The notes beneath the pieces were generated by a model. The model had not been told where the DNA came from, did not search any database, and saw only the letters and a program-made list of their open reading frames with translations. A DNA stretch of 64,000 nt from positions 32,001-96,000 of IMG/VR virus record IMGVR_UViG_3300025012_000042. The stretch is one strand, 5' to 3'. Position numbers and translations under genes: made by a program. Positions 10,876 through 56,380 of the stretch are shown piece by piece (within the stretch, counting starts at the first letter, position 1; every line of letters begins with the position of its first letter). The DNA comes from a virus.

Positions 10876-12309
10876 ATGTCATTTTATATTTTAACATTGT
10901 CTTTAAAGACTGAAAAATTTCAAGAACATATTTTAAATAAGCATTATGAAAAATATAGAAAGATTTATAATGCTTGTATTGAAGAATTATATAAACGATA
11001 TAATCATATGCGAGAATCAAAAGAATATCAAAGGAATTGCAAATCAGATAGGATAGATAGAAATAAAGTATTTTATGAATTAGATAAAAGGTTTGGATTA
11101 ACAGAATATTCTTTACATTATTTTACAAAACCAATGGCGAAATATTTTAATGTTAATGCCATGATAACCCAAGTAATTCATAAAAGAGCTTTTAAATCTT
11201 TTCGTTTACTAATGCTACACAAAGCAAAAAAGATTAAATATAAATCTTATGGTGAATTAAATTCTATAGAAGGAAAAACGAGTAAAAAGAGTATAATATT
11301 TAGAGATGATAATATATTATTCGCAGGACTTAAAATTCCAGTAATTATTAAAAAAATTGATTATTATAGTCGTATATCATTAAATGATAAAATTAAGTAT
11401 TGCAGAATTAAGCGTGAAGTAATCAAAGGAAAATATCATTATTATGCTCAGTTTATTATTGAAGGTGTTCCTCCTATAAGAATTGATAAAACTACTGGTG
11501 AAATAAAAAATTATGTTAATGACGGGGTTGTAGGTTTAGATATTGGCACTCAAAGTTTAGGTATATGTTCCAAAACAGAAGTTAAATTGCTTGAACTATG
11601 TCCTGAAGTACAGGATATTGAGAAACAGAAGAGAATACTACAAAGAAAAATGGATAGATCAAGGCGTTCAACCAATCCTGATAAATACAATGATAACGGA
11701 ACATATAAAAATAAAAACAATATTAAATGGATTAAATCTAAACACTATATTAAAACCCAAAATGAATTAAAAGAACTATACCGAAAACAAAGAGAAATAA
11801 GAAAACATTCTCATAACAAATTGGCAAATTATATTTTATCATTAGGCAATGATATTAAGGTAGAAACTATGGATTTTGTAGAATTACAAGTTAGAAATTC
11901 TACTATAAGCAAAAATACTGGAAAAATTATTAAAAATAAAAAGTTTGGAAAATCTTTGGAGAATAAAGCACCAGCTATGCTTTTAACAATTTTGGATACT
12001 AAATTAAAATGGTCAAATACACAATTAAATAAAGTAAATACATATAAGGTTAAAGCTAGTCAATATAATCATATAAAGAATACTTATATTAAAAAGAATT
12101 TAAATGAGAGGTGGAACAATTTTGGAGAGTTTAAAATTCAAAGAGACTTATACTCGGAATTTTTAATTATGAATGTAAATGATGATTTAGAAACTATTAA
12201 TAGAGACTTGTGTTTTGAGAAGTTTCAGGAATTTAAAATATTGCACGATATTGAAATTGATAGATTAAGAGGTTTAAAGGAAAATAAAATAATCAAAATT
12301 TTAATTTAA
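10876..12309 (+). CDS. tnpB: TnpB-family RNA-guided endonuclease (IS200/IS605 OrfB-like), solo
   Basis: RuvC-I VGLDIG, RuvC-II KVETM, RuvC-III QRDLYS; LQRKMDRSRR helix; no tnpA nearby. Confidence 0.88.
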   Translation: MSFYILTLSLKTEKFQEHILNKHYEKYRKIYNACIEELYKRYNHMRESKEYQRNCKSDRIDRNKVFYELDKRFGLTEYSLHYFTKPMAKYFNVNAMITQVIHKRAFKSFRLLMLHKAKKIKYKSYGELNSIEGKTSKKSIIFRDDNILFAGLKIPVIIKKIDYYSRISLNDKIKYCRIKREVIKGKYHYYAQFIIEGVPPIRIDKTTGEIKNYVNDGVVGLDIGTQSLGICSKTEVKLLELCPEVQDIEKQKRILQRKMDRSRRSTNPDKYNDNGTYKNKNNIKWIKSKHYIKTQNELKELYRKQREIRKHSHNKLANYILSLGNDIKVETMDFVELQVRNSTISKNTGKIIKNKKFGKSLENKAPAMLLTILDTKLKWSNTQLNKVNTYKVKASQYNHIKNTYIKKNLNERWNNFGEFKIQRDLYSEFLIMNVNDDLETINRDLCFEKFQEFKILHDIEIDRLRGLKENKIIKILI

Positions 12310-14830: not shown

Positions 14831-17800
14831 ATGACAGGCAAAGATAAGTTAATCGACTATATACAATTAGAACCTAATTCTCAATTATATAAATTAATTG
14901 GAGTATGCCCAAGTCATATAAATTTAAATGAAAATAAGCACAATAAATGTGGCGAAGGAGAAGACAAATGTTCTGAATGTTGGAAATTAGCACTGGATGA
15001 GGAATTTTAAATGGAAGATAAATTATTATCTCTGAAAAAACAATTTTGTAATTATTATTGTCCTAATAAATCAACAGGAATTAAAGATTATGATGAAGAG
15101 ATTTTAGATAAGCAATTTGTTTGTAAAATTTGTCAGATTTCAGATTACATAACCTTTATCAGAGATGAACTATAACTAAATAAACATAAAATAAAATATC
15201 AGAAGGGATATGAAATTATGGCAAAAAATATAATAGTTTATGGTTCAACAGTAGAAAAATCATTTAATAAACTTCAAGAATTGCTAGACAATATGAATCC
15301 AAATGATATTAAGAAAGTTACAAAAACATCTCCTAATGTTGGTATATTTATTATTGAACTAAATAATGGAGATTATTATAAAGCAATAAGCGCAAGTAAT
15401 AGTGCTAGAGGGTATAAATGGCAATACGCCTATATAGACAGAGATATAAATCAAGAATCACTTGATCATTCTGTATTTTATAATTTCATACCTGAGTATG
15501 GTACTGAGGACTATTGGAATTATGATAGAAATTTTAAAGATTATTATGAGTGGTATTAAATAATAAATAAGATAAAATAAATGACAATGTAAGGAGTGAT
15601 ATAATATGGAATCTTGGAAACATTGTGCTAAAACTTGGTATTCTATTGATATTTCATTACCAATGAAAAATATTAAATCTGTTTCTATTGTAAAATGTAA
15701 AATAAATGATGAAGGTTATTTGTTTAATATTCCTGATAAAGTAAATCCAAATATAACTCCAGAAATGATTAAGAATGGAAAATGGTATGTTTATATTTGG
15801 TCTGATTAAATTACATAAGTTAATGATTTTATGCTAATTAAGAAAGGAAGATAAAAAATGTTTAATGGAACTATAGAAATGAACAATGATTATCATGCTA
15901 TGAGATCAATTGACTCTATTTTTACTATAATGGAAAACTTTAGAAAGAAGTTTGGTCTAGAAATTCTAGATATTAAAAGAGAAACTGAGGCAAAGTTAGA
16001 CAAATTTATATTCGAATTATCACAAACAACAGTTACTTTTTCTTTTGCTTCATTTAATCGAAAGTGTGAAATTATTACATATGATGAATTAGATAAATTT
16101 TGTGAAAGATATAATTATCTAAATTACTATTTAACTGATTTTGATTTTAAAGTTGATGATGAAATTTATTACAATCATAAGATGGGAATTGTTACAGAAA
16201 TTATAGATGATAATTATATTAGTGTAATATTAAATGGAAATGAATCATCTAAAAAAGAATATAAGTGTTGGGGAATGAGATTAAATTAAGGAGTTGATTA
16301 AGTGAAACTCAGAGATTTAATTATTGAATTAGAAAAACTAGACCTTCAGGGCAAAGGAGATTATGAAGTTAAGGTTGTGTTTTGGAGTAATGAAGCAATT
16401 GTAGAAGATGTTTTATATAGTGATGCTTCTAAAGAAATAATACTTTAAAGAACCTATTTGAAAGGAGTTATATATATGAAATCAGATATATTTAAAATCA
16501 AGGAAGAAAATCAAAAGTTAAAAGAAAAAATTAGAATGTTAGAATCAGAGTTAAATATGTATAGAAAAACATTTGAAAACATCAAAAATATATTTAACAA
16601 ATCAGACAAAAATGAATTAAAAACTAGTTTGAAAGTTATCAAATAAATCTATACTCCCTGAAAAGATAAATTTTAATGGAAAGGAATAAAAACACATGAT
16701 CATAAATCAAGAACAATGGATTCTACAAGCAATGGATAAATTCAACTTCAAATTAGTAGAAGAATTCATGAATGAATACAAACTATCTGAACTTGATGCC
16801 AGAAGGGGTTTAGCAGAAATATATTATAAAAATGAATTTGAAGTTGTTTAATCTTTAATTATTATCAATAAAGGAGGAAATACTCATAGATATTCTACTC
16901 TACAACTCCAAAGACGAAATAGTGACCGCATACACCTCTAACAATCCTAATTACCAAAACAATGATCAAATCACTATCAAAGGAAGCAATAAAAACTACA
17001 AAGTAGTTGATATCAATAAGTATCATGTTATGGGAAGAGAACAGCATGTAGCATTGGAATTAAAAGTTATTAAATAAATCATAAGTAATAAATCATAAAA
17101 TAATATAGAAGAAAGGGTGTGAATATTATGGATAAAGACGAACGTGTTACCTGTACAGATTGTGTTAATTGGGATAAATTAAAAAAGAGGTTAGAAAACT
17201 ACTTTAGTTGTAATACTGCACTATGTTTTCGATGTCCTTGTAATAATTGTAGTTGCTATGATCCCACCAGTACCAGAAGATTTGAACATAGGCCAATGTT
17301 TGTAAGAAAAGATTGATGTTGTTACATAAACATAAATTTTCAAAACGAAGTGAAATAAGCAATAGAAAAATACAGTTATTATTTCATTTTGTTAATATTT
17401 ATGAAATAAATAAATAAAAGGAGTGTAATTAATATGAGAAATCATGTAAATATATTAAATAAAGAAATTTTAACAAATGAGGAATTATCTCAAAAACATT
17501 ATGAAAGAATGATGGAATTCTTGATTGCAGATTTTGAAGGTAAAGATTTTAACGAATGCGATGTAATTCTTAGACAGATTATTAAGGTTGCTTATGATCT
17601 ATTAAATGAACCTGATGTTATGAAGTAGAAATGATTTGTGAGCGACAGAATGGCATGTAGGTTGATTTAGAAATTTGTTATGGTGGAATTGTTTATGCAT
17701 GTTTATGAAGGCTGAGACAAGGCAAATTAGAGGAGGAATATATTATGAAAGAATTTGATTTAGAATGGTTTAATTCAAAAACATTGAATAAACAAATATC

Positions 17801-21340: not shown

Positions 21341-21369
21341 TTGACATATAATATAATTTATGATATAAT
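21341..21369 (+). promoter_or_regulatory. sigmaA promoter
   Basis: TTGACA-17-TATAAT with TG. Confidence 0.8.
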
Positions 21370-21410
21370 ATTAGTGGGTAGGTTTAATATTTATAGAAGG
21401 AGGGTTAGAT

Positions 21411-22946
21411 ATGTTAATTAGTAAAACAGTAATAATTAAATGGCATAATAAGACTAAAAAATGGTATGAGAATAAAGGTTACATATATACTCACAATGGT
21501 GACGAATTTGAAGTTAAAGTGGAAGATTTACAAGATGGATCTCACGCATTGGTAGATGTGCAATGTGACGAATGTGGAGAAATATTAAAGGGAAAGAAAT
21601 GGCAAAGTTACAAAAGACACGTGAAAGAAGATGGTAAATATTATTGTAGTCCATGTGCATCACGATTATATGGGGGAGAAATAACCAGGAAAATAAAACT
21701 GTCAAAAAGTAAATCATTTAAACAATGGTGCTACTTGAATCTTTCAAAAGAATTAGCAATATGGACGTTATCTAGATGGGATTATGAATTAAATATCGAT
21801 AAAGATGGTAACGTAATATTGCCTGATGATGTAAGTTACGGTTCTGACAAAGGGTATTGGTTTAAATGTCTTGATCGTCCTGAACATGGATCAGAATTAA
21901 AGAGCATTCATAGTTTTACAAATGGTCGAGAAAAAAGTATTAATTGCATTAAATGCAATTCAATTTCAATTACACATCCATTGGCTGTTAAATATTTGGC
22001 GAATCCAGAAGACGCATTAAAATATTCTCATAGTTCAATGGTTGAAGTTATTACAAAATGCCCAGAATGTGGTCATGAAAAATCAATGGATATTAACCGT
22101 TTAATAAATAAGGGGTTTAGTTGTTCTGTTTGCTCATCTGGGTATTACCCAGAAAAATTTGTATTTAACATGTTAAAACAATTAAATACAAATTTTCAAA
22201 CACAATTATCTAAAAAAACATTTAAATGGTGCGATAAATATAAATATGACAACTACATAAATAAAATAAATTGTATTATAGAAACTCACGGGATTCAACA
22301 CTATGAAGATTCTACTGGTAATTGGATGAAATTGTGTGAAGTCCAAAAAAATGACAGGAATAAAGAGGAATTGGCTAAAAACAACGATATTGAAAATTAC
22401 ATTGTAATTGATTGTCGTAAGTCAGATATGGAATGGATTAAAAAAAGTATTATGAATTCTGAATTACCCAAGTTGTTAGATTTTAAAGATGATGATGTAA
22501 ATTGGCTAGAATGTCATGAGTATGGTTGTAAAAGCTCTGTAAAATTAGTTTGTATTGAGTGGCATGGCGAAGTTAATAATATTTTAAATATAGAAAATAA
22601 ATTAAAAATAAGTAGAAGTGCGGTAATAAATTACTTGAAACAAGGAACTAAACTAGGATGGTGTATACCTCCCTACAATCCCAAGCAAGAACAAGAAAAA
22701 AGAATTGAATTAATGAAAAAGAAAATTAGTAAAAAGGTAATATGCTTAACTACAAAGGAGATATTTAATAGTATATCGGAAGCGACAATAAAAAATAATT
22801 TACGCAATAGTAGTGGTATATCTCAATGCTGTTTAAACAAAAGGAAATCATCTGGAAAACATTTAGAAACAAATGAACCGTTAAGATGGATGTATCATGA
22901 TGAGTATTTAGAAACACAAAATCAAGAACTTCTCCCATTACAATAA
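21411..22946 (+). CDS. Free-standing Zn-ribbon/Vsr-like (DUF559-type) putative homing endonuclease with NUMOD1-like tail
   Basis: VKVEDL..S..VQCDECG N-terminus, Zn ribbons, YDNYI..IIETHGIQHY, KKVICLTTKEIFNSISEA. Confidence 0.7.
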   Translation: MLISKTVIIKWHNKTKKWYENKGYIYTHNGDEFEVKVEDLQDGSHALVDVQCDECGEILKGKKWQSYKRHVKEDGKYYCSPCASRLYGGEITRKIKLSKSKSFKQWCYLNLSKELAIWTLSRWDYELNIDKDGNVILPDDVSYGSDKGYWFKCLDRPEHGSELKSIHSFTNGREKSINCIKCNSISITHPLAVKYLANPEDALKYSHSSMVEVITKCPECGHEKSMDINRLINKGFSCSVCSSGYYPEKFVFNMLKQLNTNFQTQLSKKTFKWCDKYKYDNYINKINCIIETHGIQHYEDSTGNWMKLCEVQKNDRNKEELAKNNDIENYIVIDCRKSDMEWIKKSIMNSELPKLLDFKDDDVNWLECHEYGCKSSVKLVCIEWHGEVNNILNIENKLKISRSAVINYLKQGTKLGWCIPPYNPKQEQEKRIELMKKKISKKVICLTTKEIFNSISEATIKNNLRNSSGISQCCLNKRKSSGKHLETNEPLRWMYHDEYLETQNQELLPLQ

Positions 22947-30771: not shown

Positions 30772-32194
30772 ATATCTATTAAATTCTCTAAATGAACCGT
30801 CTAGAATCATTTGTAGAACTGACTCAAATAAATTGAATAAAGACACACAAATCAATGAATCAATTTATCATTTAATAACTAATGCTGATATTTATGAGAA
30901 TTTAAGTAATTCTGGAATAGATTATACTCAAAATAAATGTCCTACATCAAATATTCAAGTAAAAGAACATCGAAAATATATTGCTATTACTGAAAACAAT
31001 GAAAAATATTTTGCTAAATCAATCAAGGTTATCCAATTTCCACAAATGCTTTCTACTGGATTCATAAACAACTTAATGATTTCTGACACTGAAATTGCCC
31101 TTACAATCTTTCCATTGCCACAAGAAGAGGCTGTGAAGACAGTAAAAAAGAGAATTGATACTAATGAAGCAAATGTAAATTGGAAGGTCGTAAAGAACCC
31201 TAATCAAGAGTTTTATGTAGAAGATGAAATTGTACTAAAACTTCAAAAGACTATGGTTGATCTTATGGGTAATGAAGAAAAACTTTGTATGGTTGGATTA
31301 TATATCTTAATTAAAGGACAAACACTTGAACAATTGGAAACAAAAGCAAAACAAATATCAATGCTTTTGGATGGAATGCAAATTAGGTTTAAATTCGCTA
31401 ATTATGAACATTTTAATTGTTTTAAGAATTTTAGAGCATATAAAGAAATTGATTATGTAAATGAGTTAAAAGTATTTTTGACAAGTGTAATTAGTAATTT
31501 TTATCCATTTGTTAGATATGTATCAGGGGATGGAGTTATTATCGGATATGATTATCAAAATTATCAATTGATTAAAATTAATTTTTCAGAACTCTTCAAT
31601 CTGTCATGGTTTATTTTCGGAATTTCAGGAAGTGGAAAGTCATTTGCTGTAAAGAGCATTGTAAAGAAAATATCTAGTCATAAGAAGATTTATATTCTTG
31701 ATATTACTGGTGAATATGCCAAACTAAAATCAAAGAATATTATCATAATATCTAAAGATTTTGAGAAATTTCTATTATACACTGATTTTAAAGATTGCAT
31801 GATTATAATTGATGAAGCATGGGATATTTTAAAAACTGATAAAGTTATTAAAAGAGTAGTAGCAATAGCGAAAGGATATAGAAAGAGGGGAGTAGGTGTT
31901 TTAGTCTGCACTCAAAACATTGCTGATACAAGTAAAGAGGATATTGAATTAATTATTAAAAACTGTGCTAATACTTTAATTCTTCATTTGACTTCACTAG
32001 AACTTCAACATATTAGCGAATACATGAATATACCTCATCATATTATTGATTATCTTTCTAGGATTGAAAAAGGACAAGGGTGGATGACCATAGGAACAAA
32101 GCAATATGCTTTTAGACCAATATTTAGTGATGAAGATTACTTGTTATTCAATACTAATTATGAGGAAATGAAAGGGGTTGGTTATAATGGGTGA
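30689..32194 (+). CDS. Compact VirB4-like ATPase
   Basis: Walker A GISGSGKS, Walker B IIIDEAW, GYRKRG, CTQN, KGQG. Confidence 0.8.
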   Translation: MLQYNLYPKANYLLATKEEQTLLRSKFKYLLNSLNEPSRIICRTDSNKLNKDTQINESIYHLITNADIYENLSNSGIDYTQNKCPTSNIQVKEHRKYIAITENNEKYFAKSIKVIQFPQMLSTGFINNLMISDTEIALTIFPLPQEEAVKTVKKRIDTNEANVNWKVVKNPNQEFYVEDEIVLKLQKTMVDLMGNEEKLCMVGLYILIKGQTLEQLETKAKQISMLLDGMQIRFKFANYEHFNCFKNFRAYKEIDYVNELKVFLTSVISNFYPFVRYVSGDGVIIGYDYQNYQLIKINFSELFNLSWFIFGISGSGKSFAVKSIVKKISSHKKIYILDITGEYAKLKSKNIIIISKDFEKFLLYTDFKDCMIIIDEAWDILKTDKVIKRVVAIAKGYRKRGVGVLVCTQNIADTSKEDIELIIKNCANTLILHLTSLELQHISEYMNIPHHIIDYLSRIEKGQGWMTIGTKQYAFRPIFSDEDYLLFNTNYEEMKGVGYNG

Positions 32195-36646: not shown

Positions 36647-37971
36647 TTAAATATCCAAATGTCTAACCAATCTTAACTCTCCATAATCGTATTCTTTAGT
36701 CCACTTACTTGTAGTAACATTATTATTATCAATGTCAAATACAACCCTGTGAAAATTATCTTTTCCAAATAAATCTTTAGCATATTCTAACATTCCTAAT
36801 AATATTTCATCCGAAGGTAAAAAATCCTTGAGTGATATAATTCTTATTTCTTTCCACCCACTTTTTATTAATCCATAAGAACGTCTTTTTTCCTTTTCTT
36901 CAAAATCATGTTCACTAATTTGACCATGTATAACTCCTAGTCTATGACCACTACCATCCCATTCTATATAAATATCTTCCTCTAATAATCCCACATCAAC
37001 AAAACATTTTCCGTTCGCATAGTAATTTAATTTCCCATTATATAATTTATTTATGTATCTTTGCTGTTTGGAACTTCTTATATTGCCACCTTTATACATG
37101 GATGCCATTTGTTTTTGTTTTATTTCTTCATTTTGCATTACATTTTCAAATCCGTATTTATCTAAATTTGTTTGCTTGATAACTTTTCTAAATTCTGGTG
37201 ACATAAATATATTTTCTACACCATATCTTTCTAAATTTGTATTTTTAGCTTTGTCTTGAAAAATAGGAACTTGCATATAACTTTTTACACCATATTTATC
37301 AAATATATTTTGCGTAAGTTGCTCTTGAAATTCTTCTGACTCAAATAAATATTCAAATCCATATCTATCAAATTAGTTAATTTAATTTTATCTTTAATCT
37401 CTTCTGATTGTATATGCCACTCTACTCCGTATTTATCCATATTTGTAGTTTTAGCTCTGTTCATCATTTCTTCTGACTGCATTAAATACGGAACTCCATA
37501 TCTTTCAATATTTGTAATTTTAGTTTTCTCTTGTATAGATTTTAATTTCATGGGATGATCTACTCCGTATTTATCAATAAAAGTTTCTTTTCTTTTTATC
37601 GAAGTCTCTTGTAATTCGGTTGTATTTTTTACACCATAAGTTAATAAATTACTTTCATTTCTTTTTTCTATTGAACATGCAACACAACAATCATCTTTTA
37701 TTATACCGTTTTCTTTCTTTCTATTATAGTCACTATATGTTGGAGTTAATAAAGTTTCTCTATTCTCTTTTAAACAATAATCACATAAAACTTCAATTCT
37801 TACTATACTTCTAGGTGTTAAATCTTCTACTTTTACCACTATCTTAGTACCACGTTTAACTACTGATTTACCTTTTTTAGTTATATATCTTGGAATATAA
37901 TATTCCAAATCTTCATAATGTTTTATATTATTTCCCGTCAACCCTACCTCAACCTCTTTTGTTATTAACAT
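36647..37971 (-). pseudogene. Vsr/DUF559-like putative homing endonuclease with TNxxxYG repeats, frameshifted near 37371
   Basis: Adding 1 nt at AAT TT GAT AGA joins 37285-38001 and 36647-37276 (..DRYGFEYLFESEEFQEQLTQNIFDKYGVKSYMQVP..); VDV..IEWDGSGH. Confidence 0.8.
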
Positions 37972-38090
37972 AAATACACCTATCCTTTCTTTTTGCCACA
38001 AGAAACAAATGGGAATAGACCTTATATCGGCAAAATATAAAGTCTATTAATTACACTTATTAATTTTCGAACATCAATAAGAAACCATGA
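37972..38090 (-). ncRNA. Structured leader RNA, copy A
   Basis: AUGGUU-P2(UUCGAA)-GUAAUU-P3-CCCAUUU; loop UUUUGCC pairs with GGCAAAA next to the SD. Confidence 0.65.
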
Positions 38091-38458
38091 AACTATTTAA
38101 CTAACCCCAAACAAAACAAAAAAGAGCCTCAAACAGCTCTTCAAAACTAAAAATACTAAATTCTAACTAATTTACACTCCAAAACCCAACTCCCAACAAT
38201 TCCCACCTCTACAACCCTTGCTACAAACCACTTTTAAATCCACTATTTCAAACAAAATAAAAACATACTTTTATTGGATAATATTATTTTATTTATATAT
38301 TTATTTCAATTCATTTATTACTCTCATCCTCATCCCCTCAAATCATAAAAATCATCATCACTTATATCTTCTTGCATTTGATGAATTATTCTTTTAACTT
38401 CTTTTGACAAAATAAAAGAGAGTCAAACTAACGACTCTCAAAATAAAAATTATTAAAT

Positions 38459-39529: not shown

Positions 39530-40513
39530 TTATAACTCATCTTCGTAATCATAGTCTTCTTCGCTATCATGTTGCTCAATAATATTAAGTTCCAATAATG
39601 CTTTATTATATTTGTCTATACTAATATTAGTAATTCCTAAGTCTTCATTGATTTGCTTGAGAGAAAATGGAATTTTCAGGGACTTTACACATTTTAAATA
39701 TGAATAATATAAAAACAATTTATGATTATTAATTTTATCAACTGTTGTTTGATTTAATATTTTATTTTTCTCTGAATCGTAAAGGATAAAATAATTATTG
39801 TTTAAGTTAATTTCTAATGAACATTCAAGTCTATCATTTATTCTTGCTTTATTAAAATCTTTATCTGACTTAATAATTTTGCTTGCTTGAATATTGCACA
39901 ATATATCTTTAAATCTATCAATAGATTCATCTTTTCTTGAATTACACATAAATCCACAGTCTGAAATCATATCCTTTAGACGAAATTTTATTATATTTCT
40001 CCTATTTTGATTCATATATAAAAAATCTAAAATATATAGAGTTTTATAGTCATTATTATTATTTTTCAATATACTTGATTTACCATTAACATAAAAAAGT
40101 TCATTTGGGATTTTAGATAGATAATCCTGTTTTGATTTCAATGAATCAATTCTAAATATATTATTACGAGCACCTTTCTTTAATTTGTACCCTCCTCCAC
40201 CGCCAGAAGATATATTGTAATAATGACTATCCTCTACGGCATTGTGGTTTTTAATTGAATCAATTTCTAATTTATTGAGTTCTTCTTTGGAATATGCAAT
40301 AGCAATTATTTCTCTATTAAAATTTTCTTTATTATGTTTAAATACTGCTATTTTTAAAAGAGATCCACTTCCTAAATATGTTCTCCAATCATTGGTTAAC
40401 TTCTTTTGACCAATATACTTTCTATTATTAATTTGATTTGTTGTTATGTAAATGAATCCATATGGTTTTATGACTTCTAACTCTTCAATACTATATATCT
40501 TTTCCTCTAACAT
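39530..40513 (-). CDS. GIY-YIG domain fused to a C-terminal HTH-type domain
   Basis: YGFIYITTN..KYIGQK..YLGSG..YYNIS.GG; LKQINEDLGITNISIDKYNKAL HTH. Confidence 0.7.
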   Translation of the reverse strand: MLEEKIYSIEELEVIKPYGFIYITTNQINNRKYIGQKKLTNDWRTYLGSGSLLKIAVFKHNKENFNREIIAIAYSKEELNKLEIDSIKNHNAVEDSHYYNISSGGGGGYKLKKGARNNIFRIDSLKSKQDYLSKIPNELFYVNGKSSILKNNNNDYKTLYILDFLYMNQNRRNIIKFRLKDMISDCGFMCNSRKDESIDRFKDILCNIQASKIIKSDKDFNKARINDRLECSLEINLNNNYFILYDSEKNKILNQTTVDKINNHKLFLYYSYLKCVKSLKIPFSLKQINEDLGITNISIDKYNKALLELNIIEQHDSEEDYDYEDEL

Positions 40514-40720
40514 AATTTAATACATCTCCCTTATATCGTTATTTACATATTTCTTCCAAAATTTGGGCGTGTCAAAACTTTACATAATATATTATTTTAC
40601 TCTTACGTTGCGTAACCTCGTTCCCTACGTAACCCCGAAGGTGTCTCTTAATCCATTACCACTATTACTATTGGTTAAAGTATTATAAGAGGGATAAAGA
40701 TTAAGAGATAATATAAAATA

Positions 40721-42307
40721 TTAAACAGTAACAATATTATTATTTTTATAATCCATTAAATCCTCATAGAATCTTCTTCCGCATAGAGATTTTATTTCTT
40801 TATTCTCAAAATTATTTATAATACAATTATTAAATGATTCTATGTAATTATCTCCCTCATTAAATTCAAAACATTTTTCTTCTTCAACATCCTTATCCTC
40901 TATAATATTCAAAGTTATTTTATATTTATTTGGCTCTTTCATGTATTTATGTTCTATTGGAGTATTTCTAGAAACAATTTCTATAAAACTATTTTCTGAT
41001 AGTTGATTAACTATTTTTATTAATGTCACTCTTGATAAATTTGTGGCTTGTTCCATTAAACTATACGGAAAATAAAATATGCCAGATTTCTTAGCATATC
41101 TCTTGCTATGTATAAGCATTGAGTATAATACCAGTTTATTATTTTTACCACTTGCTTTAAGGATTTCTTTAATTTCTTCATATGTAATCTTTACTGTTTT
41201 TACTCCACCAACAAGATTAAACTCATGAGTATAAACATATTCAACAATATTATCTATATCTTTTAAAACATTATTCCATTTTGTTGTGTAGCAATTTTTA
41301 TCCTGCTGATTCATCCATTCTGTAATCCACTCTTTACAATCCTCCCTAGATACCTCTAAATGCTTATAATATTTCGTGATGTTTATTAACGACTTCCATC
41401 TCATTCCTGTCTGAGTTAACCCTTTTTCTATTAAGTCTTCTATTGCTTCTATAGTTATTTTTTCATCAACATTCTGATCATATTGGGGCAATGGATTGTG
41501 AGCATTTTTTGTTTCTTTATAGTCTTCTATATTCTTTGTACTAACATCTTCTTCCTCAATATCAAATATTTTATCAAGAATAAGTCTAAATAATATATTA
41601 TCCATCTTCTTAATTTTAGTTATATGTAATGGATCTTTGATTCTTCTTAACCCCTTACTATAATCACAGAAATAGCAATAATTGTTTTTATCAATTTTAT
41701 TATTGAAATTAATACCTAAAGGAAGTTTTACGCCTTGCTTATTAGTTGGTCTAAATTCTACTTTACCAAAATTCTCTCCATCAATGATTAAATCTTCTTT
41801 TTCTTTTAAACTCTCTTTATCTAATACATATTTATGAAATTTCTTTAGCAGATTTACTTCAATTGGTGAATCGAAAAACAACTCTATATGATAACCCTTA
41901 CCTCCTGAGAAGCTAATATTAATAAAATCATAATCTATGCCAACATCTTGTAAAACATGAACTATTTTATCGACAACCCATTTTGCCTTTTCTATGTTTT
42001 TCCTTTTCTCTTCTTTATCAGTTTTATCTTTTTGTCCTATATCAATATCAAAAGTTATAAACTTGCTATCTTCAACACCTTTCATATCCCTAGCAAAAAC
42101 ACCTATAGTTTTAATTCCATCAATGTGATTTTTAACTATAGAATCTGTCAACATTGGCCCATTTGTTTTTTCTGGATAATCCTTATAATAATGAATTGAA
42201 ACATAATTATCCTTTTTCTCACTCCATATAAGATATTTAAATCTTTGTAATATGTATAAATCATTAATTGCTTTGACAATTTCCTCTTTCTCTGGATTTA
42301 TTAGCAT
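40721..42307 (-). CDS. Archaeo-eukaryotic primase (TOTE-like) replication protein with C-terminal HTH
   Basis: TFDID (motif I), SFSGGKGYH (II), EFRP..GVKLPLG (III); LSRVTLIKIVNQL HTH. Confidence 0.8.
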   Translation of the reverse strand: MLINPEKEEIVKAINDLYILQRFKYLIWSEKKDNYVSIHYYKDYPEKTNGPMLTDSIVKNHIDGIKTIGVFARDMKGVEDSKFITFDIDIGQKDKTDKEEKRKNIEKAKWVVDKIVHVLQDVGIDYDFINISFSGGKGYHIELFFDSPIEVNLLKKFHKYVLDKESLKEKEDLIIDGENFGKVEFRPTNKQGVKLPLGINFNNKIDKNNYCYFCDYSKGLRRIKDPLHITKIKKMDNILFRLILDKIFDIEEEDVSTKNIEDYKETKNAHNPLPQYDQNVDEKITIEAIEDLIEKGLTQTGMRWKSLINITKYYKHLEVSREDCKEWITEWMNQQDKNCYTTKWNNVLKDIDNIVEYVYTHEFNLVGGVKTVKITYEEIKEILKASGKNNKLVLYSMLIHSKRYAKKSGIFYFPYSLMEQATNLSRVTLIKIVNQLSENSFIEIVSRNTPIEHKYMKEPNKYKITLNIIEDKDVEEEKCFEFNEGDNYIESFNNCIINNFENKEIKSLCGRRFYEDLMDYKNNNIVTV

Positions 42308-45733: not shown

Positions 45734-45938
45734 TTGACATTTGCCCCTTTCTGATGTATTATTAATCAAGGTTGCATCTCTAGTACAGATGTACTCCTAG
45801 ACAAGCTACAGAAATTGGGCAATTTTTCTGTACTTGTCGCTACATATGACAACTGAAAATAAATAATATTTATAAAGAATTAATAAATTAGATCAGAAGA
45901 GATGTAAAAATAAATTTACACCTCTAATTTGAGTTTGT

Positions 45939-48533: not shown

Positions 48534-48571
48534 TAAGATTTGTTGCCTCCTTTATATTTAGTTTAGTTTTG

Positions 48572-49591
48572 TTATTTACTTGTTAATGTGGGCAATAAAA
48601 TAGAACTATCGGTTTGGATTGATAGTTCTAAATTATGTAGTATTTCTTGAATTTTAGTATCGACTAATTTTTTAAATTCTTTTACCTTATTTGTTTTATA
48701 CGGTATTCTAGTTATTTTTATACCATTATCCTCACAATACTTATTTTTAATATTATCCTTTCTAATTCTATCTAAATACCCTTCTTTTCCACCAAAATAA
48801 TCAATAATTTTCCCGTGTTGCTCTCCATCTATTTCTACAACTTCATTTAATTCAGGTATGTAAAAATCGAATTTTAACAATGCTTTATCTTTACATTCCT
48901 TAAACTTCTTTTCGGATTTATACAATATACCATTTAAAATCAACGCATTTTCAAATATTTTGTTTCCATTTGATTTAGAAAAATAAGGGTGTCCACTTCC
49001 TCCATTAATAAAACAATCAGCAGTTTGAGTAAATGTTGAGTTTATATTAACTGGCAAGTTACCTTTATAAATCCATTGATAATCTGATTTAAGTTTATCG
49101 TATTCTGTGCTTATTATCTCATAATCTGGTCTGAATAATTTGCAAAATAACCGTATGTTATCCAATGCAAATTTATTATATTGAAAAGGAGAAGGACAAG
49201 AATTTTTTCTTTTAATATTTGAGATAGATACTTGAACCTTAAATCCATATTTATCATGACACCATATAGATTTGTCAACATTTTTCCAATCATCTATATT
49301 TATCATTTTATATCCTCGTTCATCCAAAAAAGAATACGCTAATTCATTTGTCCAATTAGTTAGTCCATTTTTATCGCAATAACATTGTTTACATAGAAAT
49401 CCTTTTTTAAAACTATTCCATAACACCCAAGATTCCTTATGATTGTTGTTTGGACATTTTATTAGTGCCCATAATTCTTTTTGATATGATTTTTGTATCC
49501 ATTTAATATCTAATACTTTATATTCCATGCATTCAGACTTACTTTCGCAAAATGTATTCATTGAATCTACATTCCATTTCTTTTTACCCAT
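48572..49591 (-). CDS. Vsr/DUF559-like putative homing endonuclease
   Basis: Zn motifs; EKKFKEC..LKFDFYIP..VEIDGEQH..KDNIKNKYC..ITRIPY. Confidence 0.8.
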   Translation of the reverse strand: MGKKKWNVDSMNTFCESKSECMEYKVLDIKWIQKSYQKELWALIKCPNNNHKESWVLWNSFKKGFLCKQCYCDKNGLTNWTNELAYSFLDERGYKMINIDDWKNVDKSIWCHDKYGFKVQVSISNIKRKNSCPSPFQYNKFALDNIRLFCKLFRPDYEIISTEYDKLKSDYQWIYKGNLPVNINSTFTQTADCFINGGSGHPYFSKSNGNKIFENALILNGILYKSEKKFKECKDKALLKFDFYIPELNEVVEIDGEQHGKIIDYFGGKEGYLDRIRKDNIKNKYCEDNGIKITRIPYKTNKVKEFKKLVDTKIQEILHNLELSIQTDSSILLPTLTSK

Positions 49592-49703
49592 TATTCTCAT
49601 TCCTTTCTGACAAAAGTTTTAGGAAATGGGAAAAGAGCCAATGTGTCAGCACAGCTCTTTTAATTACCTTTGTAATGCTTCGAATCACTACAAAGAACCA
49701 TAT
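49592..49703 (-). ncRNA. Structured leader RNA, copy B
   Basis: Same conserved blocks as copy A with compensatory stem changes; loop CUGACA pairs with UGUCAG overlapping the SD. Confidence 0.65.
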
Positions 49704-49717
49704 TTAATTATAGATTA

Positions 49718-52700
49718 TTAAGTAGTAATTAATTTATTAGTTGCTTTATCTACAAAACCTTGTATTGTCAATCCATTTGTTTTAAATGTGGTTGGCGTAA
49801 TAACTCCTGAACGAACTAAGCCATTATCCATCTTAATCAAAGGATTTCCAGTTAAACTGACTAAAAATATTTGCCCTGTATTATCGGTATTTAACACACC
49901 GTTTGTTACAAGTTTACTAAAGACAAGTAAATAAAGTTGAGAATTATACATGACAAGCCATCTACCAATTCCTACCATTGGTTTTGATATAGCAGTTAAT
50001 CCATACTGTTTGGTGTAATTATTTGTAAATCCACCAGTGTTCAAATTAACCAATGCACCTGTATTTAGGTTGATACTCTCTTCGGCGAATCCTAATTGAG
50101 ATATTCCGAATTCACCATAAAGAGAAGTAGAATCTTGACCAATTTTATATGTCAAACCAGACCAAGGATGATTACCAAATTTCCCACCTACAGACGAAGA
50201 AATATCACAAATTACCCAATTTGAAAGTTCCCTAACAATTGTTACGTCTGTACTTGAAGTAATAGGTGAAGGACTAGGCACATACTCACTATATGTTGTT
50301 AGGTTATACTCGTTACTCCAATTAAATAAAGTCTGCATTTCCTTTGTTTGTTTATTGATAACCATTACATTCGCAAGTCCAGAATCTCTTCTCAAACTTT
50401 TAGGAATCAAAATATCATATCCACTAGGATACATACCTGAAGCCAAACTTAAATCCAAACTACAATAATCAACAAAAATTGTACTTGCAGTTTCATCACT
50501 TGCAGCAGAGTGTATTAAGAAATGAACCCAACCAGAACTATCTATCATATTTGCAATAGAAACAGATGCACTGCCACCACTAATTTTTGTTACAGCACTA
50601 GTTGTATTTACAGAACCAATAGTAGTAAATGTTAGGGCAACACTATTCCATACTGCAAATGTAGCACTATTTCCTCCACTTGCTAATGAACCATATGTCC
50701 ATACATTTCCAACAATAGTTCCTAGATTGGATTTCAAATATGCAACTTTGTCTATGGCACTTATAGAACCATATTTTTGCTCGAACTCAGATATGGCATT
50801 GTAAGAAATAATATATCCTGCACCTTTACCACTTGTTGAAGTCGCATATGAAGATAATGTGGCATCAAGTTTGGATAACCCACTATAATTATAAGCACCA
50901 CTTGTTGATTCAATTTCTGTTCCAGTTCCAGGAACAAATTCTGTATTACGACTTGCAATTGTGCCTTCTTTATACCTGATTATATTTGGATTGGAAGCAA
51001 CATCGCCTTTTAATTTTGAAGCGAAGTCATCAGAAAGGACAATACTTGATGAAGTACCTATAGAATTTTCCGAGCAAATCACGATTTTATCGGAGAATTT
51101 GATGTCTAATGATGCGTAATCTACGTTGATGACGGATGGGGTTATTCCGTCCGATGCGTCTGCGTAGGCAATAGCGTAAATCGTACCAGTGGGCGAAATG
51201 TAACTAGGAGAAATAGTAAGAGTTGTAAGAGTTGGCGTACTTTGAGTATTGGTCACTGCTGTAGCAAAAGCAGCACTCGTATAATAACTAACACTTGCTT
51301 TATTACCTGTTGGACTTGAACCATGACAGTAAACTTTACAAGTCATGGTACTAATATTATTTTTCATCCACGTTGCTTTTTCAGCAGTGGTTTTAGCAGG
51401 AATTTTACATCCTAATTTCCGTTCAACAATTTTAATCACATCTAGTATAAGAGGAACTTGTGCTCTCTTTCCGTTTTCAGAAGTTGTGACAGTATAACTT
51501 ATTCCATCCTGTGTTTTGATTTTATCAATATCCGTCTGCGAAGATACTTCAATTATAGTCGTATTTGCAGGAACACTCAAAGGACTTGAACTATCGAACC
51601 ATGCCGCAAAGATAACGTTACATTGGCCTTGAGTTGGTTCGTTTCCTGCACCGAATGTAGCGGTTAGATTTATAACAATAATATTGTCAACATAATAAGT
51701 TGACCAAGCAGAAGCTCTAGAATCTCCAATCTCCAATAAGGTACTCGTGGTCGTAGCTGTGATAATTGATGATACTTTTTGCAGGGTAGGGGAATAGGCA
51801 TAGGCATCTGTTCCTTGTCCAAACTTTAAATATATTTTTGAAGATACATCAGTCTCAATATCCGCTGAGACATAATATTTATTACCTGTAATAGTTGTTT
51901 TTAGTTGTGATATAGAGGCGAACTGTGCTGTTGCTAATTTGCTCGCTCTACCATCCACTATAGCTGTAATATTACTCCATCCAGTAGTCCCATTAGTGAA
52001 ATCGCCATTCGTTACAATATTTGTTGCCGTTCCATCAGGATATGGAAACTCTAATATATTACTTTCACAGTCATATAGCTTATTCGGATTCTCCCAAGTC
52101 CTACCGCTAACCTTACTAGCAAAATCACTCGTAATTGTCTGATTTGCATAAGGTAATCTAAACCCTGCTTCACCCATCAGAGTAGTTGTGGTAGGTACAC
52201 TCAATGCAGGTTGACCTGCTGACATAATCATTGAGTAATCAATCTGTAAATCTTGATTTGTTAAACTAGCATTAGTTCCTAGTTTAAACGTAGCAACATT
52301 TCCAAACATTCCAGTCCAAGGAGTAACTGCATCGCCTACCACTTCTGTTTTAGTTGTTCCATTCATGTAATAAACTTTTGGAACTGAACTAGTAGCAGTT
52401 GCCTCCATAGCAACAACTTGATATTTACTTAAAGCTATTCCAATTGTTTCAGTGAAAGTTAATTTCTTATTTGTAGCATCTACTCCACCAGTATTAATTA
52501 TTTTAGTAGCTAAGACTGTTCCTAAAACTCTATCAACAAGTTTTACAGTATCTCCATCTGAATATAAAGTTGTATCAACAATATCAAAATATGCTGATGT
52601 GTCTGTGGATAAAGCGTCTTTTACTAATGTAGATTTAGCAGTATCAGTATCAAAAACACCAGAAATTAATTCCCCTGCCATACCAGTAATTGTGACAGTA

Positions 52701-56191: not shown

Positions 56192-56380
56192 ACTAAATCC
56201 CTCCTTAAGATTACCTCCCATATAAATACAAACAATAAGAAAGCAAGCAGAAACACACTATGGGAGGAAAGTTAAATGTGTTTTCAGATATCATCTGCCT
56301 ACTTACTAAAATAGACATACAAAAGAAGAGGTTAAAATCACCTTTCCCTCTCACCTTTTATTCTTCTTTTAACACAAAAT

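Follow-up and report, generated by a model that had tools for sequence, protein, structure and literature searches.

Background and the element under study

Homing endonucleases must be expressed without harm to the genome that carries them, and the means by which this is achieved are known mainly from the T-even phages. In the latter, the genes for I-TevI, I-TevII, I-TevIII, segB and mobE (Aeh1) are controlled by RNA structures that sequester the ribosome-binding site, or RBS (PMC2988022). The subject of this report is a leader RNA of roughly 110 bases, encoded twice on the minus strand of a 64,000-nucleotide stretch of viral DNA – positions 32,001 to 96,000 of IMG/VR record IMGVR_UViG_3300025012_000042, referred to below as the window, with coordinates counted from its first letter – and each time directly followed by a homing endonuclease gene. 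It represents a real family of structured RNAs, absent from Rfam, that goes with the homing-endonuclease genes of phages. Its probable role, to which we assign a probability of about 0.7 from sequence comparison, would be that of a cis-acting 5′ leader that limits or gates the initiation of translation.

The resemblance to the T-even elements is one of principle. In both cases, a cis-acting leader structure precedes a phage homing-endonuclease gene, the Shine–Dalgarno (SD) sequence is buried on a read-through polycistronic transcript, and a potentially harmful nuclease is presumably kept low or late. As in the T-even type, the SD lies within a leader helix: in the class 1 leaders described below it forms the 3′ arm of a helix (P3) in which 5/5 pairs covary. 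The T-even elements are, however, single, gene-specific hairpins with a late promoter in the 5′ arm, which keeps late transcripts from folding in this way, whereas the family described here spans ~110 nucleotides, combines a three-way junction, a loop–loop pseudoknot and a self-complementary loop, stands before many unrelated endonuclease genes and has no evident embedded promoter (sigma-70-like sites occur at the level of shuffled sequence). The leader thus appears not to be a member of the T-even hairpin set, and to be a new form of a known kind of RBS-masking control.

The SAM-II/V, preQ1-II and guanidine-III RNAs are pseudoknot riboswitches that hold the SD in the aptamer. The leader shares with them a hairpin loop that pairs with a 3′ RBS segment, so that a pseudoknot would decide access to the SD; unlike them, it has no match to an Rfam aptamer, its junctions differ from class to class, and the genes concerned are selfish nucleases, not metabolic ones. 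For its second hairpin loop, the likeness is to HIV-1 DIS, a symmetric kissing-loop dimerisation site with a 6-nucleotide core flanked by purines, and to the loops L9.3 of OLE and L21a of GOLLD: all have a variable palindromic core that is self-complementary through the two central nucleotides. In the leader, this sequence signature comprises 10 hexamers with CG, GC or AU at the centre and occurs in 41/46 loops of helix P1 against 0/46 loops of helix P2. Those systems belong to a viral genome or to large non-coding RNAs, whereas here a short mRNA leader carries the loop, and the dimer is a prediction only.

HEARO, or omega RNA, is a guide RNA of 200–300 nucleotides bound by IscB, a protein with a RuvC domain, and is associated with this one protein family. 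It resembles the leader in that a mobile element encodes the structured RNA shortly before the gene for an HNH-type nuclease; the leader differs in preceding many unrelated nucleases (GIY-YIG, HNH and Vsr-like), in pairing with its own RBS and in lacking an Rfam match. No association with IscB or TnpB was found among the proteins downstream of the leader, which are of the DUF4379, GIY-YIG, HNH, NUMOD3 and DUF7487 types. Lastly, the lariat-capping ribozyme GIR1 lies upstream of the open reading frame (ORF) of the homing endonuclease I-DirI (PMC2219692). It, too, is a pseudoknotted structured RNA directly 5′ of a homing-endonuclease ORF and serves its expression, yet it is group-I-like, measures ~190 nucleotides and lies within a eukaryotic twin-ribozyme intron, and the leader has neither sequence nor Rfam similarity to it.

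A covarying three-way junction

At least 46 distinct leaders, the two window copies A and B included, were recovered from uncultured IMG/VR phages by pattern scans followed by searches with two covariance models, R1 and R2. Class 1, to which both A and B belong, reads AUGGUU – P1 – GUAAUUAA – P2 – CCCAUU – P3/SD, where P1 and P2 are hairpins enclosed by a short helix, P0. The initial annotation, drawn from the window's sequence, had listed P1, P2 and a pairing between the P2 loop and a 3′ segment; these helices stand, but P0 (UGG/CCA) and P3, whose 3′ arm is the SD, had been overlooked.

In an alignment of 36 sequences, 92.9% of the cells fall into standard pairs, compared with 68.1% after shuffling, and covariation scores 0.675 as opposed to 0.214, a level that 0/500 shuffles attain – figures that bear out the earlier claim of a covarying structured RNA, although this alignment was fitted to R1, which favours the structure. 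An independent, MAFFT-based set of 14 sequences gives the same picture, and class 2 (see below) is 100% paired. Pairing is sensitive to register, falling to about 46% when the 3′ partners are slid by 1 to 3 columns. Changes on both sides of a pair are seen in 10/10 pairs of P1, 10/12 of P2, 4/6 of the helix that joins the P2 loop to its 3′ target, and 5/5 of P3; in P0, G–C is replaced by A–U in 3 sequences, and the class 2 equivalent is AUAG/UUAU. With 128 G–U pairs to 39 A–C combinations, the fold can be assigned to the sense strand, that is, to the mRNA. Comparative evidence of this kind establishes the predicted P0/P1/P2 three-way junction with its loop-to-RBS helix, as regards its structure, its strand and its fixed position relative to the RBS.

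Copy A (38088–37969, minus strand) runs from its AUGGUU start at 38088 to the AUG of endonuclease A at 37971–37969, and R1 scores it at 81.9 bits (expectation value, E, about 1e-11). The 5′ arm of its P0, UGG at 38087–38085, pairs with CCA at 38012–38010 (helix 1, 98% paired in the alignment). P1 is a 9-bp hairpin at 38081–38056, with arms CUUAUUGAU/AUUAAUAAG and the loop G-UUCGAA-A at 38072–38065 (core 38071–38066). It is followed by the junction strand J1/2, UGUAAUU at 38055–38049, corresponding to the class 1 consensus GUAAUUAA, which is invariant in class 1 alignments. P2 occupies 38048–38014 (arms AAUAGAC/GUCUAUU), and its apical UUUUGCC (38035–38029) pairs with GGCAAAA at 37997–37991. 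The latter segment also forms the loop of P3 (UUUCUU/AAGAAA, 38005–37986), whose 3′ arm enters a purine-rich SD region with AAAGGA at 37988–37983 and AGGUG at 37981–37977.

Copy B (49701–49589, minus strand) likewise extends from its AUGGUU start to the AUG of endonuclease B (49591–49589) and scores 91.6 bits with R1. Here P1 is a 10-bp hairpin at 49695–49668 with arms CUUUGUAGUG/CAUUACAAAG and the loop A-UUCGAA-G at 49685–49678 (core 49684–49679), while P2, at 49661–49631, has arms AAAAGAGC/GCUCUUUU and a loop, CUGACA (49649–49644), that pairs with UGUCAG at 49612–49607. P3 (49625–49600; UUCCU at 49625–49621 with AGGAA at 49604–49600) covers the SD AAAGGA at 49606–49601 and carries UGUCAG in its loop. 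Both copies thus lie where the initial annotation had placed them, on the minus strand, with all of its listed P1, P2 and loop-to-3′-segment pairings and the common strings AUGGUU, GUAAUU and CCCAUUU present in each. Their resemblance is far beyond chance: the sub-pattern TTCGAA-N8-16-GTAATTAA alone occurs 2 times in the window, where 0.02 occurrences are expected.

Pairing of the P2 loop at the ribosome-binding site

In 30/32 class 1 copies, the P2 loop forms at least 6 contiguous pairs with the 3′ region of the same leader, compared with 9.8% of cross-combinations, in which the loop of one class 1 leader is set against the 3′ region of another. At least 14 different complementary loop/site sequences account for these pairings, including CCUAUA/UAUAGG, CCGAUUA/UAAUCGG, CCACUA/UAGUGG and UUCUGAU/AUCAGAA as well as UUUUGCC/GGCAAAA of copy A and CUGACA/UGUCAG of copy B. 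Together with the two-sided changes in this helix, they uphold the proposal that a covarying loop pairs with the segment touching the SD.

The target site is 6–7 nucleotides long, lies about 10–20 nucleotides past P0 and abuts or overlaps the SD; the leader as a whole occupies a fixed position before the SD, a placement of the cis-regulatory type that had been suggested at the outset. When the 3′ part of class 1 leaders is folded alone, the target falls in the loop of P3, the 5′ arm of which is a pyrimidine run and the 3′ arm the SD. The anti-SD arm tracks the SD through different sequences (UCUCU/GGAGA, UUUCUU/AAGAAA, UUCCU/AGGAA and CUUUUU/AAAAGG). By computation, P3 alone is worth −3 to −6 kcal/mol, and the duplex between P2 loop and target −7.0 kcal/mol in A and −6.3 kcal/mol in B. 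In class 2 and in a third type of leader, the P2 loop itself resembles an anti-SD (UCCUUUC, UCCUUGU or ACACUCC) and has two matches, one at an upstream site and the other at the real SD.

Two further leaders in the window, at 45741–45853 and 56214–56304 (both on the minus strand), also contain a hairpin whose loop complements the region of the RBS, with the loop/RBS pairs UUGCCC/GGGCAA and CCUCCCAUA/UAUGGGAGG. They precede a holin-like ORF of 170 residues and the ORF 56221–55259, neither of which is an endonuclease. R1 and R2 match neither leader, and their folds are different, the loop-to-RBS principle being all that they have in common with the family. The late genes of this phage may quite generally use a loop to mask the RBS.

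A self-complementary P1 loop

The apical loop of P1 contains a self-complementary core of 4–8 nucleotides, which takes the form of 10 different hexamers: UUCGAA, UUGCAA, UUAUAA, UAGCUA, UCAUGA, UAAUUA, UGAUCA, UGCGCA, UCGCGA and UGCGCG, the last of these self-complementary only by way of G–U pairs. GGCC occurs as an additional core. In the 41 P1 loops counted above, at least 3 contiguous self-complementary pairs span the apex, and 2 further P1 loops have an off-centre UCAUGA; two of the scans that yielded the leaders (the class 2 scan and the fifth scan) left P1 unconstrained. In class 1, the 6-nucleotide core is flanked by purines. Since the two central nucleotides (CG, GC or AU) are neighbours, no single hairpin can pair them with each other, and their covariation must stem from contact between two molecules, as has been argued for the symmetric kissing loops OLE L9.3 and GOLLD L21a (bioRxiv 10.1101/2024.12.08.627333).

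Computed energies of the P1 loop–loop duplexes range from −0.4 to −8.3 kcal/mol, and an extended P1 duplex, with a continuous helix of about 26–28 bp, is computed to beat two separate hairpins by 9–11 kcal/mol. At the locus orthologous to that of copy B in three related phages, P2 and P3 are nearly unchanged and the P1 arms are wholly different, yet the loop is still palindromic, which argues for selection on the form of P1, not on its sequence. Most likely, two leader RNAs pair with each other through their P1 loops.

This behaviour removes the ground for regarding UUCGAA as a conserved, T-loop-like element, as the initial annotation had done: it is one of at least 10 interchangeable palindromic cores. 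A T-loop reading of GUUCGAAA was also tried and rejected, the stem being disrupted in the T-arm register and the loop changing from copy to copy as a palindrome. Equally rejected was the idea that P1 loops within one genome are orthogonal, since A and B share UUCGAA, as do two copies of L003 and two copies of G005.

Imperfect palindromes of a different kind, UCCU-AAGAAA-N6-UUUC-AAGGA, are found at gene junctions at about 15.7–48.7 kb of the phage genome, G000:C1 (for example, at 15740, 17021, 27112 and 48655). They are distinct from P1, and their arms resemble an anti-SD/SD pair.

Members of the family and their relatives

Class 2 leaders read AGAUAGGU – P1 – ACUGAUAAGA – P2 – UCUUCUUUUAU – site 1 – SD, their third junction strand being given as CUUUUAU where the class 1 counterpart is CCCAUU. 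Classes 1 and 2 co-occur in the same phage contigs. We treat the two as homologous, a probable relationship suggested by cross-matches between the models – R2 finds copy B at 29 bits, and R1 finds class 2 copies – and by an intermediate copy (L108:8801). A third type of endonuclease leader, with the same architecture and an HNH-like ORF downstream, lies outside the window in the same genome, at G000:C1:107464–107590 (minus strand). Its P0 is GCAACA/UGUUGC, its P1 loop A-UUGCAA-U, and it has almost no junction nucleotides; its P2 loop, UACACUCC, complements two GGAGUGU sites, the second of which is the SD.

Covariance-model scans with Rfam 15 gave zero matches at the gathering score in the whole window, and left the motif unmatched at E up to 10 at the two motif loci and at E up to 1 at eight other copy-bearing loci, in line with the initial remark that no matching Rfam family was recognised. 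Among GenBank phages, megablast and blastn searches returned nothing or short chance matches, whether the query was one of the two loci or a typical leader of class 1 or class 2. R1 and R2 were also run on Clostridioides pCD1602_4, ES-S-0173-01 and MT835469, three complete phages chosen for their related endonucleases or DnaE, and gave only matches with E of 0.25–0.7 that do not have the fold. In representative bacterial genomes, two strict patterns yielded 0 and 9 stretches, none of them a true copy (the best R2 score being 21.6 bits). Among relatives of one endonuclease, R1 has no match; one of them has a class 2 leader and the others have different leaders. No description of such a leader was found in the literature, although a bulk catalogue of IMG/VR RNAs (PMC10690425) could include the family: in it, Fremin et al. 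(2023) list 8495 unnamed candidates.

Downstream genes and exchange at the leader boundary

Nearly every copy of the leader stands immediately upstream of a homing endonuclease gene, and these genes fall into several unrelated families (DUF4379/Vsr-like, GIY-YIG, HNH and DUF7487). The steps proposed with the initial annotation – building covariance models, seeking homologues and tabulating the genes downstream – have thus led to a family with strong covariation and endonuclease genes in its wake. Of 39 downstream ORFs scanned, all are endonuclease-like but one, which follows a decayed copy with neither loop feature. Pfam tallies are led by the DUF4379 treble clef (14), followed by GIY-YIG (5), CapR (5), NUMOD3 (4), DUF7487 (4) and HNH (3–4); the PHROG tallies are 21 for phrog_559, 13 for phrog_12131 and 11 for phrog_681. 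The suggestion of an RNA associated with endonucleases is thereby corroborated, and for genes of many families, whereas autoregulation by the nuclease, also raised at first, is unlikely, given that the same leader precedes at least 4 unrelated nuclease architectures.

The two window copies illustrate this diversity. Endonuclease A (36647–37971, minus strand; DUF7487, phrog_12131 ‘homing endonuclease’) is represented by the ORFs 37971–37285 and 37276–36647 and is broken by a frame change near 37370, as judged by tblastn with an intact homologue of 430 residues (L004:3225–4517). Endonuclease B (48572–49591, minus strand; 339 residues) matches phrog_559 and phrog_9084 and has a Vsr/DUF559-like C-terminus. 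BLASTP finds no significant similarity between A and B.

At both loci, homology with related phages breaks right after the leader. At locus A, the terminator and leader are 91.5% identical to L004:3013–3223; past the leader, the N-terminal domain (the first ~150 residues) is different, and homology resumes in the C-terminal two-thirds, so that a domain swap appears to begin directly after the leader. The terminator-like hairpin with its U-run, at 38142–38121 on the minus strand, lies ~30 nucleotides upstream of leader A within the block shared with L004. At locus B (48555–49761, minus strand), comparison with L257, L259 and L256 shows homology breaking at the start codon and resuming just past the stop codon: all three have the leader, with P2 and P3 ~88% identical, and a different endonuclease ORF between the tail-fibre gene and the next gene, and no empty allele was seen among them. 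The breaks at both loci mark the leader as a stable 5′ boundary for the exchange of nuclease ORFs or domains.

Proposed mechanism and alternative explanations

In the mechanism that we favour, the P0/P1/P2 three-way junction would position P2 for contact with the RBS. In class 1, a weak SD-masking P3 would be locked by the kissing helix of the P2 loop (about −6 to −7 kcal/mol), and in class 2 and the third type the P2 loop itself would hold the SD, the upstream site serving as a decoy; the P1 loops of two leaders would probably pair to give an RNA homodimer. We infer that the fold lowers translation and that P1 dimerises in vivo; a trigger that opens the fold, if any exists, would belong to the same set of inferences. 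Transcription of copy B fits control at this level: it starts 17 nucleotides past the stop codon of a tail-fibre ORF of 1842 residues, with no terminator between the two and no convincing promoter, so it is probably carried on a polycistronic late transcript and control must be translational. An internal sigma-70 promoter was considered and rejected, as matches to sigma-70-like sites are no more frequent in the leaders than in shuffled sequence, with the proviso that the late-promoter type of this phage may differ.

Several observations weigh against leader-mediated control of translation as the whole account. By itself P3 is weak, and in copy A another SD-like sequence, AGGUG, lies outside it, which suggests that repression may be partial. 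A simple brake needs neither a three-way junction, nor ~20 class-invariant junction nucleotides, nor a dimerising loop, and the fold may accordingly do more than mask the SD. Several copies, A among them, lie just after a terminator with no recognisable promoter between. Moreover, two endonuclease genes in the window have no leader in the upstream regions examined: one encoding 511 residues at 21411–22946 (region 21343–21440, plus strand), which has its own near-consensus TTGACA-17-TATAAT promoter of a strong sigma-A type, and a GIY-YIG gene at 39530–40513 (region 40513–40730, minus strand).

The surplus of conserved features invites readings in which the fold acts as a switch. One, tentative and on the whole unlikely, is that self-pairing of P1 reorganises the junction or creates an RNase III site, and so decides whether the P2 loop locks onto the RBS; P1 pairing would then follow transcript concentration and, through it, phage genome copy number or the stage of infection. 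If true, this would amount to an RNA-only, concentration-sensing timer for selfish nuclease genes. Alternatively, the junction may bind a metabolite or a phage or host protein that decides P2-loop access to the RBS, with the endonuclease made only in a particular state of the cell or the infection. Consistent with such a gate, the junction strands are invariant within each class (AUGGUU, GUAAUUAA and CCCAUU in class 1; AGAUAGGU, ACUGAUAAGA and UCUUCUUUUAU in class 2), the SD-masking helix is marginal unless the loop–loop helix forms – dependence of this kind is the working mode of pseudoknot riboswitches – and class 2 offers one loop two competing sites, a possible two-state design. The junction could even be the core of a new aptamer or ribozyme. 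However, class 1 and class 2 have different junction sequences and the third type has next to none, all within the same phages, which speaks against a common binding pocket; comparison of the three finds no ligand core conserved across all representatives. As the genes controlled have no metabolic theme and no Rfam aptamer matches, we consider gating by a ligand or protein unlikely.

The remaining alternatives assign the fold to other levels of expression or to the DNA. A 5′ structure with an SD-like decoy might protect the message against exonucleases acting from the 5′ end, as 5′ stabilisers do for Bacillus mRNAs; the SD-like first site upstream of the real SD in class 2 and type 3 leaders would suit this, as would the Gram-positive type of these phages, suggested by DnaE. 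Yet in class 1 it is the real SD that forms the 3′ arm of P3 and covaries with the anti-SD arm, indicative of masking rather than protection, and leader B lies inside a polycistronic region, not at a 5′ end, which makes stabilisation an improbable main role. A self-cleaving or processed RNA, which would free the endonuclease message from the upstream transcript or offer the P1 dimer – a long continuous helix – as an RNase III substrate, draws on the compact junction with its invariant unpaired nucleotides and pseudoknot, on the similarity of class 2 J1/2, CUGAUAAGA, to the hammerhead CUGAUGA box and on the ribozyme precedent directly before an endonuclease ORF (PMC2219692). It is very improbable all the same: the ribozyme families of Rfam yield no match at E values as high as 10, each class has its own invariant nucleotides, and translational control accounts better for the close register with the SD. 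A hammerhead of type III topology, which places a CUGAUGA box, a GAAA strand and a UH cleavage site around a three-way junction, was rejected in particular, class 2 having CUGAUAA and no GAAA strand, class 1 having GUAAUUAA instead, and the Rfam hammerhead models remaining unmatched. Finally, the element might act as DNA, either as a module of recombination or shared homology by which endonuclease ORFs are exchanged, like a mobile regulatory cassette, or as a promoter or operator, with the RNA fold secondary. That homology with relatives spans the leader and breaks at the start codon at both loci, and that P1 is a DNA palindrome in most copies, would be expected of such a module. Set against this are helices kept through G–U pairs, which are A–C mismatches on the opposite strand, the core UGCGCG, self-complementary only as RNA, and arm sequences that vary so freely that a sequence-specific DNA-binding protein is unlikely. 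Sigma-70-like sites at shuffled frequency do not help the promoter variant, and recombination within the leader is compatible with a function of the RNA. An element acting mainly as DNA is, in our judgement, quite improbable.

If control of translation initiation by the leader is correct, many unrelated nuclease genes of uncultured phages of the Gram-positive type appear to draw on the family as a portable solution, and mRNA leaders that dimerise, as predicted here, would be uncommon in bacteria and phages. Uses may follow for the leader as a compact model of RNA-only translational gating, as an annotation marker for mobile nuclease cassettes and, possibly, as a modular part for the synthetic control of toxic genes.

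The source phage

The source record is a virus assembly of 112,820 bp from groundwater metagenomes. It represents a large tailed phage of the low-GC Gram-positive kind, with DnaE 40–46% identical to that of Geobacillus phage E3, the Lactococcus 949 group and Clostridium phage c-st. Elsewhere in the window, among genes of nucleotide metabolism, an ORF of 477 residues (10876–12309, plus strand) matches phrog_506, ‘transposase’.

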